The notes below the pieces were generated by a model, which was not told the origin of the DNA, searched no databases, and was given only the letters and a program-made list of their open reading frames with translations. 64,000 nucleotides of DNA from a virus (lineage: Duplodnaviria > Caudoviricetes), in IMG/VR virus record IMGVR_UViG_3300031707_001866, positions 1,240 to 65,239 of that record; one strand, given 5' to 3'. This document shows, in pieces, positions 38,951 through 55,670 of this stretch. The number at the start of each line of letters is the position of its first letter. The stretch's first letter is position 1. Made by a program: the position numbers and the translations under genes.

Positions 38951-39175
38951 ATGAAAATAGAAGAGATGATAAATAAAATATTCTTAGAGACTAAAAATGG
39001 GTTTGAGTATGTTAAACAAATCCCAGACAAGTCTATTGATATGATACTTTGTGATTTGCCTTATGGAACGACCGCCTGTAAGAATCTGAAAAGAAACTTT
39101 ATAGGAATGGAAATCTATCAAGAGTATATAGACATATCCTATAAAAGATTGGCGGAACTAGATGGAAATAGGTAA
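38951..39175 (+). pseudogene. Internally deleted N4/N6 DNA methyltransferase
   Basis: [18 protein letters not shown] joined directly to [17 protein letters not shown] and FxGxG missing. Confidence 0.75.
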
Positions 39176-39752
39176 AAATTTTTCTTGTAATAATGAAGGA
39201 AAAAGGAAGAAAAGCGACTTTTATGAAACTCCATATTCTATTACAAGACAATTTTTGGAATTGGAACCGCCTCCCCTGGAATGGAAAATTCTCGAACCTG
39301 CCGCTGGTTCGGGGGCAATGACAAAAGTAATAAAAGAGTTTTCAAGTAATGTTACAGAGTATAAATTTGAACAGGGGAAAGATTTTTTAATAGAAAACGA
39401 AAAGTTCGATTTTATAATAACAAATCCTCCTTTTTCTCTTGCCTATGAATTTATTCAAAAAGCAAAACAAGTTGCAAATCATAAGTTCGCACTTTTATTG
39501 CCCTTGTCTTATTTGCACGGAAAAACCAGATTTGATAATGTTTGGTCTGATAAAAAGTTTCCATTATCCCATATATATGTATTTGTTCGTTATCCGATGT
39601 TAGGGAACAAACTGCGAGAAGATGGAAAATATAAAACAGGTATGATGGTTTATGCTTGGTATGTATGGGACAAAAGCACAACAAATAAAGAGCCCATCAT
39701 TAAATGGATTGATAACCATAAATATGTAATAGGGGCAAGAAATGGACAATAA
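39162..39752 (+). CDS. DNA N6-adenine methyltransferase
   Basis: [14 protein letters not shown] (motif I), IITNPPF (motif IV). Confidence 0.88.
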
Positions 39753-40692
39753 AATTGAAATAATAGAATACAAATCCAATGCTCACCCGGACACCTTAAC
39801 AGACCTGGTTGTGGAAGCGTGTGCAACTTTTTTAGATTGGTATTACCAACGAAACTACGGGAAAGTTTTACATTACAATGTAGACAAGGCTCTATTCTCT
39901 GCCGGAGACGCAAACGTTTATTACGGCGGGGGAGAAGTCGTAAAACCACCTTGTTTTATTCTCGGCGGTCAAGTCACTAATTTAGATAGTGTCTTACGAA
40001 GTTGCTTAGTGGGAGAAACTAGAAAAACAATTAGAAAACACTTACCTAATTTAAAAGAGTTTGATGTGGAAATAAGATGCGGTTCCACAGTAAAAAATTT
40101 AAACGACATCGCTGTCAATGAAGTAATTTTATCTAATGACACCTCTTTTGGTGTAGGGTATTATCCTTATTCTTCTGCTGAGCAGACAGTCTTTTCTATT
40201 CGGGATTATTTAGACTTCGTAATCCACGAACAGGTAATCCCAATGGGTGAACTGTACAAAATAATGTATACCCCAGAAACTATTTGTATCTCGGCTCCTT
40301 TATATGCCAATAGAATTCCAGACAGAGAAGCCTACGCTGAGTTTAAGGCACGCATCCAGTATGAACTCTCTGATTATGGCAATATAATATTCAACCCAGA
40401 CTTTGATGGGGGGTTTCCTTATATGACTTTGTGTGGGAGTAGTATTGAATGTGGTGACGATGGTCAGGTGGGTAGAGGAAACAGATACAACGGTCTTATA
40501 ACCCCGTGCCGCCCGATGACCATTGAAGCGTATCACGGGAAGAATAATAAAAACCACGTGGGAAAACTCTACTCTAAAATGGCTTTTGAAAGAGCCAAAG
40601 CGCTTTATGAAGAAACAGGTAAATATACTGAAGTAATTCTAGTTAGTAAAATAGGAAGACCAATTACCGAATACGAGGAGTATATAATATGA
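39742..40692 (+). CDS. mat: Archaeal-type S-adenosylmethionine synthetase (methionine adenosyltransferase)
   Basis: HPDTLTD, HYNVDK, NDTSFGVGYYP, GDDGQVGRGNR.NGLITP.RPMTIEA..GKN..NHVGKLY. Confidence 0.88.
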   Translation: MDNKIEIIEYKSNAHPDTLTDLVVEACATFLDWYYQRNYGKVLHYNVDKALFSAGDANVYYGGGEVVKPPCFILGGQVTNLDSVLRSCLVGETRKTIRKHLPNLKEFDVEIRCGSTVKNLNDIAVNEVILSNDTSFGVGYYPYSSAEQTVFSIRDYLDFVIHEQVIPMGELYKIMYTPETICISAPLYANRIPDREAYAEFKARIQYELSDYGNIIFNPDFDGGFPYMTLCGSSIECGDDGQVGRGNRYNGLITPCRPMTIEAYHGKNNKNHVGKLYSKMAFERAKALYEETGKYTEVILVSKIGRPITEYEEYII

Positions 40693-40834
40693 ACAATCCA
40701 ATACTTTTAGTGCTGATATTTTTTCAACTTTTGGTGGCCGGGTATTATTTTATATCTAAGGCTCCTTTGCTTGGTGGATTATTTATTATTTATGCTATTA
40801 GTAATGTAATAACCATATTTTTGAAAGTGCAATA

Positions 40835-41707
40835 ATGAAAAAGTTACGAATTTTTGACTTGTTTACTGGCATTGCTGGTTTTAGTTTAGGAATAATTCGT
40901 GCATTGGGAAAAGAAAATGTTGAGATAGTGGGATTCGGCGAAATTGAAAAAGACCCAATCGCCATAAATAAATTTAATTTTAAGGAGATTAAAAATTATG
41001 AAGATGGAAAACCCTTGCCCGATTTTGATTTGCTTGTCGGAGGGAGCCCTTGCCAAGACCTCAGCACTGTTGGAAAAAGGAAGGGACTGTTTGGAGAAAG
41101 AAGTAGACTATTCTTTTATTTCGTGCAACTTCTTAAAGAAAAGCAACCTACAAATTTTATCTTTGAAAATGTTAAAGGTATTTTTTCAAGCGATAGAGGA
41201 TGGGATTTTGCAAGAGTGCAAATTGAGTTTTCCGAAGCAGGTTATGACATTGAATGGCAACTACTCAACTCCGCTGACTTCGGAGTCCCTCAACACAGAG
41301 AGCGAATTTATATTATCGGACATCTTAGAGGAAAAAGTGAACCAAAAGTATTTCCTTTCACAAAGAGTAACAGACCGATTATTAAAAAGGAATCTAAATA
41401 TTTAATATTTGATGGTTACAATAGAAAGTTTACAGAAATGATTGGCAGTTTAAGACAAAATATGCTGAATGGTGGAAGTTTAATTGTAGAAGACAACAAA
41501 TTTCGCAAACTAACTCCGATAGAGTGTGAAAGACTGCAGAGTTTTCCAGATAACTGGACGAAATTTGGGATAAGCCAAAAGGGAACCCAGTATGAAATTT
41601 CTGATAATAGACGGTATAAAGCAGTAGGGAACGCAGTTACGGTTAGTCTCGTAGAAACGATTGTTAGGAAGTTATATAAAGTAATCAAAGAGGAAAAATG
41701 CTTATAA
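40835..41707 (+). CDS. C5 DNA cytosine methyltransferase
   Basis: DLFTGIAG, GGSPCQDLS, ENVKG, PQHRERIY, YKAVGNAV. Confidence 0.93.
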   Translation: MKKLRIFDLFTGIAGFSLGIIRALGKENVEIVGFGEIEKDPIAINKFNFKEIKNYEDGKPLPDFDLLVGGSPCQDLSTVGKRKGLFGERSRLFFYFVQLLKEKQPTNFIFENVKGIFSSDRGWDFARVQIEFSEAGYDIEWQLLNSADFGVPQHRERIYIIGHLRGKSEPKVFPFTKSNRPIIKKESKYLIFDGYNRKFTEMIGSLRQNMLNGGSLIVEDNKFRKLTPIECERLQSFPDNWTKFGISQKGTQYEISDNRRYKAVGNAVTVSLVETIVRKLYKVIKEEKCL

Positions 41708-54607: not shown

Positions 54608-54661
54608 CTGTTATAGTTTCACTTCTGTTATAAGTATACAACTGTTATATAGTTTCGTCAA
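54608..54661 (-). promoter_or_regulatory. Early promoter overlapped by three TATAACAG boxes at 17 bp period
   Basis: TTGACG-17-TATACT; CTGTTATA at 54608, 54625, 54642. Confidence 0.75.
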
Positions 54662-55010
54662 GTAATATTCTCTTATGATATTTTATATCATTAAACAAGC
54701 AAATGAAACCGTAACCTGTAACAACCCCATCAAACCGCTTTTTAATAAGTTTAAGCCCATCAACAAGGCCAAATTTTAATAAGTACCGCTTAGAATCCAC
54801 TTTTAGGCTATACAATTTTAAGCCCTTGCCGTTTACGGTGTAAAGGTACTTAGCACCGCTTAAAACCGCTTCCGGCTTTTTATCCTTGTAAAAATATAAT
54901 CTTTTAAGGCCACACGTCAAAACATCATTTTTAGAATAACCGTTCCGGCCAAAAAATTTAACCCTTAGCACGTTTTTAATGTTTTCATTTGAAAAATGAT
55001 ATAATCTCAT
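54645..55010 (-). CDS. Early protein, possible ADP-ribosyltransferase-like fold
   Basis: MRLYHFS...RLYFY pattern; weak. Confidence 0.45.
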   Translation of the reverse strand: MRLYHFSNENIKNVLRVKFFGRNGYSKNDVLTCGLKRLYFYKDKKPEAVLSGAKYLYTVNGKGLKLYSLKVDSKRYLLKFGLVDGLKLIKKRFDGVVTGYGFICLFNDIKYHKRILLDETI

Positions 55011-55021
55011 AAAATCACCGC

Positions 55022-55411
55022 CTAAGCCCTATTATATAAACTAGCTTTTAATGTGTTGTGTTTATCGTACGAGCTGTTAAAATATAGGGTAATAATCTTT
55101 TTACTGCTGTTTATAACTAGAATCAAATCTTCTTGACTATTATAGTTTAATCTAAAACAAGCTTTTAACACGTTTCCGGCCTCGATATAAACTTCGAAAA
55201 CGTCTTTCGGCCTTAGCGCTTGACTTTTTAGCCACGTCAAAACGTTTTCAACATCTTTTAAGCCCCTAGTCTTTATCCGGTCAATACAATGACTCGCAAA
55301 ACTATAATCTAAGCTCTTAAACGTGTCACACAAGATTAAAAGCTTTTCTTGTGTGTCTTCCGGCCAAAAAACTTCTTTATGATATCTATACACTTTTAAC
55401 CCCTTAAACAA
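55022..55411 (-). CDS. Early hypothetical protein (possible RNase-toxin-like fold)
   Basis: SHCIDRIKTR...ITLYFN...DKHNTL. Confidence 0.5.
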   Translation of the reverse strand: MFKGLKVYRYHKEVFWPEDTQEKLLILCDTFKSLDYSFASHCIDRIKTRGLKDVENVLTWLKSQALRPKDVFEVYIEAGNVLKACFRLNYNSQEDLILVINSSKKIITLYFNSSYDKHNTLKASLYNRA

Positions 55412-55670
55412 GTTTTACGTCTATAGTTTGTGAAATAATTAAAACTGCTTGTTGATTATTTATAGCTTTTATTTCATTAGCCACTAGACTTATTTTTTCT
55501 TTATTAGAAGTTAACTCTCTAAGAATTACTTCTATAATTAAACTTTTTTCTTCTGTACCTTGCCAAACCCCTAGACTGTCAATCAATGTGTAGTTTTCAA
55601 AATGATTATTTAGAATACTTTTAATTTTATCAATGTTTATGTTTTCTGTATATATTCTATAAAGTTTCAT
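55404..55670 (-). CDS. SAM lyase (T3 SAMase-like, PII-like fold) candidate
   Basis: YTLIDSLGVWQGTEEKSLIIEV...ANEIKAINNQQAVL. Confidence 0.6.
   Translation of the reverse strand: MKLYRIYTENINIDKIKSILNNHFENYTLIDSLGVWQGTEEKSLIIEVILRELTSNKEKISLVANEIKAINNQQAVLIISQTIDVKLV

Follow-up and report, generated by a model that had tools for sequence, protein, structure and literature searches.

Why should a phage carry both a gene resembling SAM lyases and a gene for a SAM synthetase? The question is raised by a 64,000-nucleotide stretch of viral DNA (hereafter the window; positions 1,240 to 65,239 of IMG/VR record IMGVR_UViG_3300031707_001866), for which the initial annotation proposed a two-stage control, in which an early lyase-like protein drains SAM and a later archaeal-type methionine adenosyltransferase (MAT) restores it for the phage methylases. 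Our analyses suggest that each gene probably counters host restriction on its own; a two-step circuit is plausible but unsupported.

Gene content of the window

The phage identity of the window follows from the family A DNA polymerase, primase-helicase, clamp loader and exonuclease that it encodes. The features relevant to SAM and DNA modification are collected in Table 1. In the methylase remnant a DLPYG motif is fused to the C-terminal motif and the middle of the domain is absent. The MAT gene is preceded by a Shine-Dalgarno-like site and its start overlaps the N6-adenine methylase gene by 11 nt, while the C5-cytosine methylase gene overlaps the start of the polymerase gene. The Mom-family gene is a further DNA-modification gene of the window. 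On the opposite strand, the DUF7417 gene is a frequent neighbor of the family to which the 88-aa protein belongs, being found at most 3 kb away in 8 of 20 loci.

Table 1. Features of the window discussed in the text
Feature	Coordinates	Strand	Evidence
N6/N4 DNA methylase remnant (PF01555), 74 aa	38951..39175	+	PF01555 E 8.4e-5, profile positions 197-220 of 221
N6-adenine DNA methyltransferase, 196 aa	39162..39752	+	PF02384 E 3.1e-6; phrog_799 E 1.1e-49; NPPF motif
Truncated archaeal-type MAT (P0002), 316 aa	39742..40692	+	PF01941 E 4.5e-70
C5-cytosine DNA methyltransferase, 290 aa	40835..41707	+	PF00145 E 1.3e-61; phrog_116 E 8.7e-82; PCQ and ENV motifs
Replication operon holding the methylation module	41698..45565	+	Family A DNA polymerase 41698-43509, 100-aa ORF, primase-helicase 43814-45565
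Mom-family protein (DNA adenine modification enzyme family)	45519..46193	+	PF25680 E 1.8e-27
DUF7417 protein, 65 aa	54392..54589	-	PF24192 E 1.6e-25
P0001, PII-fold member of a viral DUF3574-like family; putative minimal SAM lyase or SAM-binding protein, 88 aa	55404..55670	-	
Four putative tiny ORFs (42, 48, 51, 49 aa) between promoter and 88-aa gene	55695..56401	-	
Perfect sigma-70-type promoter, head of leftward small-gene block	56474..56501	-	TTGACA, 16 nt, TG-TATAAT; 12/12

The archaeal-type MAT

The profile HMM analysis assigned P0002 to PF01941 (AdoMet_Synthase) with 236.9 bits at a cut-off of 27, and the sequences of six solved archaeal MATs were matched with E about 4e-43. According to Foldseek, the structure model (pLDDT 93.4) resembles archaeal MATs with TMq of 0.86-0.91 and bacterial and eukaryotic MATs with about 0.6 (13-15% identity), which bears out the statement of the initial annotation that the enzyme is of archaeal type and far from bacterial MetK. 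Its placement between N6-adenine and C5-cytosine methylases was likewise confirmed by the PF02384 and PF00145 matches on either side of the PF01941 match. P0002 covers profile positions 15-350 of 395 and aligns with residues 19-351 of the 401 of the archaeal chain; compared with the full-length form (about 400 aa, with a swapped N-terminal strand and a C-terminal subdomain), it lacks about 15 residues at the N-terminus and 45-50 at the C-terminus. It belongs to a truncated (~315 aa) clade of viral and metagenomic contigs, and a tblastn search of 50,697 GenBank phage records revealed no match of this type.

The SAM contacts listed for the MAT from P. furiosus in PMC8727953 are H30, H59, N61, D141, L142, D198, Y268 and D280 (D198 is given elsewhere in that source as D168). 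Six of these eight are kept in P0002, as H15, H44, N46, L120, Y227 and D239. D198 aligns with Leu171 in the subclade of P0002, and the counterpart of D141 is probably Asn119 or else falls within a 4-residue deletion, depending on the alignment. The Leu is characteristic of the GELYK subclade (7 of 13 short-form rows), to which P0002 belongs, while other short forms keep Asp. The motifs HPD, NDTSF and GDDGxVGRGNRxNG...GKN..HVGK are invariant across 43 clade members. Judged from these sequences, the changes at D198 and D141 together with the missing termini could make the activity or the substrate choice differ from those of other MATs. A more radical possibility, which we consider very unlikely, is that the truncated protein has a changed product or role, making a SAM analogue from another nucleotide or serving the methylases as a SAM-binding partner instead of a synthetase. 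The two substitutions, the loss of both termini and the description, in bioRxiv 10.64898/2026.07.10.737877, of MAT homologues to which other NTPs serve as substrates would agree with it, but the invariant motifs, the retention of Asp in other short forms and the ordinary SAM-dependent families of the flanking methylases argue against it.

Linkage of the MAT to DNA methylases

A screen of metagenome loci with only 10 query proteins from four methylase families revealed a methylase-like ORF at most 150 bp from the MAT in 33 of the 49 loci whose MAT is at least 50% identical to P0002, versus none within 3.5 kb in the 31 loci with more distant archaeal-type MATs (35-39% identical; Fisher p = 1.2e-10). 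No methylase was found in 15 of the 49 loci, 10 of which have less than 600 bp of flanking sequence on one side. Among the nine other MAT-bearing IMG/VR records, a set that overlaps with the metagenome loci (e.g. L063 and G001, both of 86,231 bp), a DNA methylase abuts the MAT or is one gene away in seven (PF01555, MT-A70, PF00145 or ParB-PF01555) and is present somewhere in all nine. What is conserved beside the MAT is thus a DNA methylase, whether a lyase is present or not.

Virome surveys list phage SAM synthetases as "auxiliary metabolic genes". The tight linkage to methylases, regardless of their family, argues that at least this MAT clade is part of an anti-restriction methylation module and not of general metabolism, and if so, the reading of such genes in viromes would change. 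Archaeal MATs are also used for making SAM analogues, which makes a naturally minimised archaeal-type enzyme of ~315 aa interesting for enzyme engineering.

The 88-aa protein: fold and relationship to SAM lyases

The ORF of P0001 begins with ATG, 5 nt downstream of a Shine-Dalgarno-like AAGGGG, and its product reads ...NYTLIDSLGVWQGTEEKSLIIEV...EIKAINNQQAVLII. The motif by which it had originally been compared with SAM lyases is present, with five residues instead of the quoted four between YT and GVWQG. The protein represents a large viral family (2,607 representative clusters). Of its 135 relatives that we compared with profile libraries, 80 matched DUF3574 (PF12098; best score 32.5 bits), while P0001 itself scored 15.5 bits (E 0.016; cut-off 25 bits); membership in DUF3574 alone explains nothing, this being a family without known function. 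PF23780 (S-AdoMet_lyase, curated cut-off 28 bits) was matched below threshold by 69 of 135 (best E 1.6e-5), phrog_2226, the T3 SAMase family, by 32 (P0001 itself: E 0.094), and the canonical P-II family (PF00543) by five (best E 0.0057). At E<=1, P0001 matched neither PF23780 nor PF00543, and PF23780 was found nowhere else in its record. The profile-profile comparison with the T3 clade gave a weak match (E 0.015-0.016, probability about 3%), and a search of PDB sequences with the family profile reported the PII-like SbtB as the sole match (E 0.08), with no lyase.

The structure model of P0001 (pLDDT 97.3) exhibits the b-a-b-b-a-b topology of a PII-like ferredoxin domain, with a Synechococcus phage P60 protein as the best match in BFVD (TMq 0.87). 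The homotrimer was predicted with ipSAE 0.97 versus 0.00 for the best control, the runs agreeing in at least 98% of contacts with partner pLDDT of at least 96; the mark used for this score was reached by 20 of 30 solved same-chain pairs and by 1 of 23 single chains. The score covers the protein chains and may stem from the model's memory of PII trimers. The predicted interface comprises G34, W36 and the strand after Q73, and P0001 is modeled with the trimeric PII-like ferredoxin fold and inter-subunit sites typical of the SAM lyase family. A fold comparison with phage SAM lyases, as the initial annotation had suggested, thus recovered the fold that lyases have, but the scores tie between lyases and PII signalling proteins, and consequently the fold does not single out the former.

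The residues conserved in SAM lyases are, in Svi3-3, G56, Y58, the catalytic E69 and Q104 (PMC7877911, PMC12255297). In the 88-aa family G34 and an aromatic residue at position 36 are found in 135/135 members, E41 and Q73 in 134/135 each and Ser or Thr at position 43 in 114/135. Judged by secondary structure, G34, W36, E41 and Q73 (94-100% conserved) appear to occupy the positions of the lyase residues; hhalign pairs G34, W36 and Q73 with G55, Y57 and Q94 of T3, at an E-value of only 0.015. P0001 has EEKS where T3 SAMase has EEKT, and Q-[DQ]-x-V-L is common to both. The Gln in QQAVL, which had been flagged as a possible sign of inactivity, is real but of minor weight: 30 of 135 relatives share it, and the E105Q variant of Svi3-3 retains about a third of the activity (PMC7877911).

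A greater difference concerns the T-loop, which is reduced to four residues (between W36 and E41) in 134 of 135 family members. Water exclusion is the proposed catalytic principle of SAM lyases. It may fail in P0001, because this loop is so short and there is no room for an extra hairpin; in SAM lyases the T-loop has 10-12 residues and helps enclose the substrate (PMC12255297), and in Svi3-3 a hairpin also encloses the ligand (PMC7877911). The proposed likeness to SAM lyases is hence supported for the family, through its weak matches to PF23780 and phrog_2226, and is weakened for P0001 by its lack of an own PF23780 match and its short T-loop. We regard P0001 as SAM-lyase-like and as a candidate minimal SAM lyase or SAM binder.

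Alternatively, P0001 could be a PII-like ligand-binding trimer unrelated to SAM, for instance a sponge or sensor of an adenine nucleotide or second messenger, or a host-protein-binding regulator. We find this somewhat unlikely, given the prevalence of S-AdoMet_lyase over P-II matches among the relatives and the near-invariant G34, W36, E41, S43 and Q73, which correspond to the lyase set as presented in PMC7877911 and PMC12255297 and not to the nucleotide-binding loops of PII. Moreover, none of the 19 further viral records that carry the 88-aa family encodes a PF01555, PF00145 or PF02086 methylase, which would suit a protein that lowers SAM. Should it prove to be a true SAM lyase, no smaller one would be known, and a gene that is very common in phages would acquire a function; if not, the family would be an abundant phage PII-like ligand binder, which is also worth knowing.

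Co-occurrence and timing of the two genes

The pairing of a lyase-like gene with the MAT, which the two-stage proposal would predict across phages, is not conserved. PF01941 was absent from all 19 viral records with the 88-aa family, including six that are at least 90% complete, and a lyase-like gene was present in only one of eight other MAT-bearing records searched; the seven without it include one 86% and one 99% complete. The exception, G026 (173 kb, 82% complete), encodes a 183-aa protein that matches PF23780 with E 3.6e-5 and 26.1 bits, below the Pfam cut-off. A lyase-like gene is present in 21 viral records, of which only the window and G026 also encode DNA methylases; both have the MAT.

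Promoter-like sites are enriched in region 46500-59200 (60 versus 40.3 +/- 5.6 in shuffles), where the minus strand carries, besides the perfect promoter in Table 1, further sites scoring 12/12 and 11/12 (53448, 52926, 51287). No enrichment of sigma-70 promoters was found in 33000-47300 (50 versus 44.9 +/- 7.0), and the leftward block holding the 88-aa gene is the only one with consensus host-type promoters. This pattern fits early expression of the 88-aa gene and later expression of the MAT. The 88-aa gene does not open its block, as four putative ORFs of 42-51 aa separate it from the perfect promoter.

A full two-stage circuit would have the 88-aa protein first deplete SAM or block host MetK, disarming SAM-dependent defences, and the functionally coupled, MetK-unrelated MAT, produced later alongside the replication genes, then restore SAM for the methylases. 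In our opinion it is unlikely. Both genes are present and look intact, T3 SAMase is reported to cleave SAM and to inhibit MetK (PMC8406200; bioRxiv 10.1101/2023.02.27.530186), and the promoter pattern, the low identity of the phage MAT to bacterial ones and the restriction of methylases to the two lyase-like records that have a MAT are consistent with the circuit. Against it stand the co-occurrence counts in both directions, the sub-threshold score of the G026 protein and the MAT-methylase link, which stands without any lyase. Furthermore, an orthogonal synthetase is no shield for SAM as long as the lyase persists, and the scheme therefore requires a hypothetical switch-off of the lyase.

Proposed roles

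We favor, with slightly better than even confidence, two separate SAM-related anti-restriction devices: a MAT-methylase module and an 88-aa SAM lyase-like or SAM-binding protein. The module, situated in the replication operon, would consist of the methylase remnant, the N6-adenine methylase, the MAT and the C5-cytosine methylase, with the Mom-like gene further on. The mini-MAT would make SAM locally from ATP and methionine, allowing the phage methylases to fully modify replicating phage DNA whatever the SAM supply of the host. The 88-aa protein would be produced from the leftward block, driven by its consensus host-type promoters, and would form a PII-like homotrimer, with the G-x-aromatic, E-x-S and Q-E/Q residues known from phage SAM lyases in its inter-subunit clefts. 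Most likely it would bind SAM and either cleave it to MTA and homoserine lactone or sequester it, so that early in infection defences that depend on SAM, type I R-M and BREX for example, are blunted. Both devices may cooperate in the window phage, yet they form no co-inherited unit.

A bolder scenario, which we offer as speculation with little expectation that it holds in full, is that the phage manages SAM privately. Expressed from early host-type promoters, the 88-aa protein would act as a very small trimeric SAM lyase, or as a blocker of MetK, depriving the cell of usable SAM and disarming type I R-M and BREX. The MetK-unrelated mini-MAT, with its ribose pocket remodelled (Asp to Leu) and translationally coupled to the methylases, would pass SAM or a near analogue directly to them, which would confine modification to phage DNA. 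Lyase-like, MAT and methylase genes were found together in only two records, one of them the window phage, which thus lends itself to studying how a phage both attacks and uses SAM.

Comparison with known systems

P0001 shares with phage SAM lyases (T3 gene 0.3 SAMase, Svi3-3, Orf1; PF23780; PDB 6ZM9, 6ZNB) and SAM-AMP lyases (9GAD) the PII-like fold and the predicted trimer. As in these enzymes, strand 2 appears to end with G-x-aromatic and strand 3 to open with Glu, followed two residues on by Ser/Thr, while Gln-(Glu/Asp/Gln)-x-Val-Leu would link helix 2 to strand 4; the gene, too, is a small and probably early one. It differs from these lyases (about 125-152 aa) in its size, its T-loop of 4 versus 10-12 residues, the lack of the extra hairpin and of a significant PF23780 match of its own, and Trp in place of Tyr. 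DUF3574 members, such as the Synechococcus phage P60 protein (45364-45609, 40.9 bits), have the same size and fold, but P0001 scores below the cut-off of that family.

P0002 resembles archaeal MATs (PF01941; PDB 6S83, 4L4Q, 7P83, 4K0B) in its fold (TMq up to 0.91), in 31-33% identity and in all major catalytic motifs. Unlike these enzymes of about 400 aa, it has about 315 aa, lacks the N-terminal strand and 45-50 C-terminal residues, carries Leu for D198 and probably Asn for D141, and comes from a phage whose promoters and ribosome-binding sites are of bacterial type.

The closest parallel to the module as a whole is found in streptococcal prophages, where a SAM synthetase encoded in the replication region is directly beside adenine and cytosine DNA methylases. 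Streptococcus phage Javan57 has a bacterial-type SAM synthetase, an adenine methylase and a cytosine methylase in a row beside replication genes, and for the orf29 SAM synthetase of Phi1207.3, which occurs with orf32/orf33, the authors proposed a supply of methyl donor for the phage methylase (PMC4260502). The synthetases of these prophages belong to the MetK type, with 46-48% identity to the E. coli enzyme, whereas P0002 is of the unrelated archaeal type, and the module of the window would be a non-orthologous counterpart of the MetK-plus-methylase arrangement. A module of SAM synthetase and methylases is hence already known in its bacterial-type form, and the version with an archaeal-type mini-MAT is a new variant.

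Gene content of the window

The window takes in 64,000 of the 65,239 bases of its source record (36% complete according to CheckV) and is assigned to a tailed phage on account of its genes for a family A DNA polymerase, a primase-helicase, a clamp loader and an exonuclease; its ribosome-binding sites and promoters are of the bacterial type. Both ORFs singled out in the initial annotation are present, one encoding an 88-aa protein with the motifs ascribed to it and the other a methionine adenosyltransferase (MAT) that does lie, as claimed, between genes for an N6-adenine and a C5-cytosine methylase (Table). 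The short ORF at the head of this module looks, from its motifs, like a methylase with an internal deletion. The ORF at 38534-38950 lies directly upstream in the same frame, with a stop codon in between, but a split or read-through methylase was rejected in favor of a deletion remnant because the upstream ORF exhibits no similarity to methylases.

With the Mom-family gene, the replication/methylation operon has DNA modification enzymes of three kinds; the "tRNA-???" that ARAGORN reported at 45567-45639, within the Mom-family ORF, is probably a false call. The diphosphohydrolase domain of the PF18909 protein hints that the phage may manipulate the purine dNTP pool. The 2-aminoadenine (Z-base) pathway, which this domain brought to mind, was rejected, as no adenylosuccinate-synthetase-like PurZ was found in the 65-kb record (36% complete). 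The ORFs at 17111-23575 (+; 2,154 aa), 11099-12478 and 61949-63787 had no PHROG match at E≤1e-5.

Features of the window and of related loci discussed in the text
Feature	Location	Strand	Remarks
dATP/dGTP diphosphohydrolase N-terminal domain protein, 239 aa	33645-34364	+	PF18909, E 4.8e-21
Putative methylase remnant, 74 aa	38951-39175	+	Heads the module; DLPYG motif fused straight to the C-terminal PF01555 motif
N6-adenine methylase	39162-39752		Upstream of MAT; 11-nt overlap with MAT start
MAT, 316 aa	39742-40692	+	PF01941, E 4.5e-70
C5-cytosine methylase	40835-41707		MAT on one side; overlaps the polymerase gene on the other
Mom-family protein, 224 aa, GNAT fold	45519-46193	+	PF25680, E 1.8e-27; after the primase-helicase
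DUF7417 protein	54392-54589	-	PF24192, E 1.6e-25
88-aa protein	55404-55670	-	
Lyase-like protein of record G026, 183 aa	L039:996-1547 (G026:C1, about 137.5-138.0 kb)		
T3 gene 0.3 (SAMase)	L005:901-1359		
Tunturiibacter phage Tunturi_3 gp112, 92 aa	L001:2995-3273		40% identity to the 88-aa protein
Synechococcus phage P60 family member	L029, 45364-45609		DUF3574, 40.9 bits

A truncated archaeal-type MAT linked to DNA methylases

The archaeal affinity of the MAT was correctly recognized. Beside the PF01941 match, comparisons with six solved archaeal MAT sequences gave E-values of about 4e-43 to 6e-42, and the structural model (pLDDT 93.4) superimposes on archaeal MATs with TMq 0.86-0.91, as against about 0.6 (identity 12-15%) for the bacterial and eukaryotic enzymes. 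The protein is shorter than the archaeal enzymes (roughly 400 aa), with about 15 residues missing at the N-terminus and 45-50 at the C-terminus. PMC8727953 lists eight SAM-contact residues for Pyrococcus furiosus MAT, six of which are identical in the phage protein; D198 corresponds to Leu171, and D141 falls, according to the alignment used, on Asn119 or in a short deletion. Leu at the position of D198 is typical of a "GELYK" subclade (7 of the 13 short-form sequences in our MAT alignment), while other short forms retain Asp. The catalytic motifs are invariant across 43 aligned members of the clade, which is large: the best 120 of 6,916 matches include about 90 of its clusters (301-347 aa, 45-78% identity). 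A tblastn search of 50,697 GenBank phage records reported no match. A MAT 70% identical to that of the window (P0039) is encoded on a 101,973-base contig and named as coming from a Promethearchaeota MAG; since the clade has a viral context, this contig may be viral and binned into an archaeal genome.

Nine other IMG/VR records were found to encode a MAT of the same kind, and in seven of them a DNA methylase gene is directly adjacent to the MAT or one gene removed from it: PF01555 in G001, G003 (on both sides) and G027, MT-A70 in G002, a C5 methylase in G023 and a ParB-PF01555 protein in G024 and G028. In the remaining two, G025 and G026, the MAT loci are near-identical to each other and the PF01555 gene is located elsewhere in the record. 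A partly overlapping metagenome collection (80 loci kept of 271 MAT relatives) was screened by phmmer with 10 methylase proteins of four families (E≤1e-5), which gives a lower bound. Where the MAT was at least 50% identical to that of the window, a methylase-like ORF was found within 150 bp in 33 of 49 loci and within 1,500 bp in 34; 10 of the other 15 loci have less than 600 bp of flanking sequence on one side. For the 31 loci with MATs of 35-39% identity, presumably cellular, the count was zero (Fisher p = 1.2e-10). On these counts from both collections, a methylase is the constant partner of the MAT.

The 88-aa protein, a PII-like candidate SAM lyase

A word-based search with the 88-aa protein found 12 close relatives (85-87 aa); when 1.84 billion representatives were searched with a profile, 2,607 proteins matched at E≤0.001 (1,072 at E≤1e-10), nearly all of 82-95 aa. 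Our alignment of 135 relatives comprises 129 of the 150 listed profile-search matches and 6 from the word-based search; 21 longer proteins (93-187 aa, e.g. P0136 and P0277) were left out. T8, G34 and N71 are invariant, E41 and Q73 occur in 134 sequences each and E47 in 132, position 36 is always aromatic (W 127, Y 5, F 3), position 43 is S or T in 114, and at position 74 the counts are E 74, Q 30 and D 21.

The model built from this alignment (pLDDT 97.3) has the topology b-a-b-b-a-b. A Foldseek search of the PDB placed PII and SbtB proteins on top (E about 6e-5); the Svi3-3 SAM lyase (6ZM9) came at rank 27 (E 2.1e-4, TMq 0.72). As these scores tie, the fold can be called "PII-like" and nothing further. 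A three-copy prediction including SAM reached a score of 0.97 (best of three controls, 0.00), with SAM itself outside the score; in the calibration of the method, 20 of 30 same-chain pairs of solved structure and 1 of 23 single chains attained the mark. Contact agreement between runs was at least 98%, partner pLDDT was at least 96, and the modeled interface includes residues 32-38 and 75-81. Because PII trimers abound in the structural record, the score indicates likeness and is not proof of assembly.

T3 gene 0.3 defines both phrog_2226 and Pfam PF23780 (S-AdoMet_lyase). At E≤0.1, 69 of the 135 relatives match PF23780 (best 1.6e-5); DUF3574 is matched by 80 (best 8.4e-8) and canonical P-II by 5. 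Separately, phrog_2226 is matched by 32. The window's own protein matches only DUF3574 in Pfam (15.5 bits, cut-off 25), and phrog_2226 with E 0.094. Alignments by hhalign with T3 SAMase alone or with 23 T3-clade sequences were weak (E 0.015-0.05); the T3-clade profile alignment (E 0.015) pairs G34 with G55, W36 with Y57 and Q73-Q74-x-V-L with Q94-D95-x-V-L, and E40-E41-K-S of the 88-aa protein resembles E67-E68-K-T of T3 SAMase. Global alignment with the T3 clade was meaningless, and among 45 T3-clade proteins the lowest E-value obtained with the family HMM was 0.0019, for that small set. Among solved structures, phmmer with the 88-aa protein reported only chance-level matches, and the family profile detected SbtB alone (E 0.08) and no lyase.

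According to the Svi3-3 study (PMC7877911), Svi3-3 residues G56, E69 and Q104 are strictly conserved in active SAM lyases, Y58 packs on the substrate, S71 binds the ribose, and the critical Glu of T3 SAMase is E68. Set against these reference residues, the 88-aa family appears to have the right kind of residue at each place. The Gln at position 74, flagged initially as a departure from the expected Glu, is genuine and shared by 30 relatives, but is not disqualifying, as the same source reports that Svi3-3 E105Q is only threefold less active, while E69Q abolishes activity. Evidence against a lyase comes from the loop that joins strand 2 to strand 3, which has 10-12 residues in SAM and SAM-AMP lyases (PMC12255297) and 4 residues in 134 of the 135 family members; there is no room in the 88-aa protein for the ligand-enclosing hairpin of Svi3-3. 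The sequence evidence for a SAM lyase is indirect, although more than negligible, and we rate the chances that the protein cleaves SAM or binds it specifically as about even.

In 8 of 20 loci (the window, L008, L009, L013, L014, L017, L022 and L024) the 88-aa gene has a DUF7417 gene (60-90 aa) within 3 kb on its own strand, and the DUF7417 protein may be a functional partner. The Tunturi_3 homolog is labeled "ATP-dependent DNA ligase", likely a misannotation, as is likely the RefSeq label of T3 SAMase, "SAM-dependent methyltransferase", which phrog_2226 carries in identical form. In a 488-aa "phosphoserine phosphatase family" atlas cluster, DUF3574 is found on 66% of members together with HAD domains, which suggests that enzymes can carry DUF3574 as a fused ligand-binding module.

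Timing and co-occurrence of the two genes

The leftward block at 56.5-47.3 kb contains, on its own strand, two perfect and three 11-of-12 sigma-70-type promoters, and promoter-like sites are enriched in it (60 vs 40.3 ± 5.6 in shuffles). The replication/modification region (33-47.3 kb) shows no enrichment (50 vs 44.9 ± 7.0 sites) and no perfect site. This pattern of promoter matches is consistent with early transcription of the 88-aa gene by the host polymerase and later transcription of the MAT. In phage P60, whose genome has 46,675 bases, the family gene sits at the right end, outside the left-end early genes; early position is therefore not universal in the family.

The initial annotation envisaged a two-stage circuit in which the early lyase-like protein drains SAM and the MAT later restores it for the methylases, and named co-occurrence across phages as one of the checks. 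The two genes rarely co-occur: PF01941 was found in none of the 19 IMG/VR records with the 88-aa family (none of the 6 at least 90% complete). The methylase families PF01555, PF00145 and PF02086 were likewise found in 0/19 (the PF01555 positive control in viral records worked; a PF05063 scan of the same records had no working control), and the lyase-like gene is usually found in phages without methylases. Conversely, the family profile had no match in seven of eight other MAT records, including two with completeness of 86% and 99%; for the further record G024, a fragment of 4 kb, the search was with PF23780 only. The exception is G026 (173 kb, 82% complete), whose 183-aa protein matches PF23780 over its C-terminal half (E 3.6e-5, under Pfam's cut-off), displays G-x-F, E-T-S and N-Q-E-S-V-L motifs with a long strand 2-3 loop, and has no match in the PDB at E≤10; we place it between lyases of the T3 type and the 88-aa family.

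Only two records combine a lyase-like gene with methylases, and both also carry a MAT. This fits the two-stage circuit, but two records are few and are confounded by the link between MAT and methylases. The circuit is an attractive possibility to which we give a low probability. The initial observations hold, and their interpretation is supported in part; the pairing of lyase-like gene and MAT is seldom seen. Most likely, the window combines two unrelated elements: a methylation module that makes its own SAM, and an early protein of the PII fold whose target is probably SAM.

Comparison with known systems

The concept of a phage SAM synthetase beside methylases is already known, since bacterial-type examples are described in the literature and virome surveys count both SAM synthetase and C5 methylase as auxiliary genes common in phages (PMC11283538, PMC10980836). 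We found no archaeal-type MAT of phages in the literature searched, supplementary AMG tables (with possible PF01941-type entries) lying outside that search. Bacterial-type MetK genes occur in 135 of the 50,697 phage records, mostly streptococcal prophages; in Javan57 the replication genes are followed by those for SAM synthetase, adenine methylase and cytosine methylase, in that order. The enzymes of the streptococcal prophages are bacterial-type, however, whereas that of the window is archaeal-type and truncated; what is new is this truncated archaeal-type MAT clade and its quantified linkage to methylases, which is independent of the methylase family.
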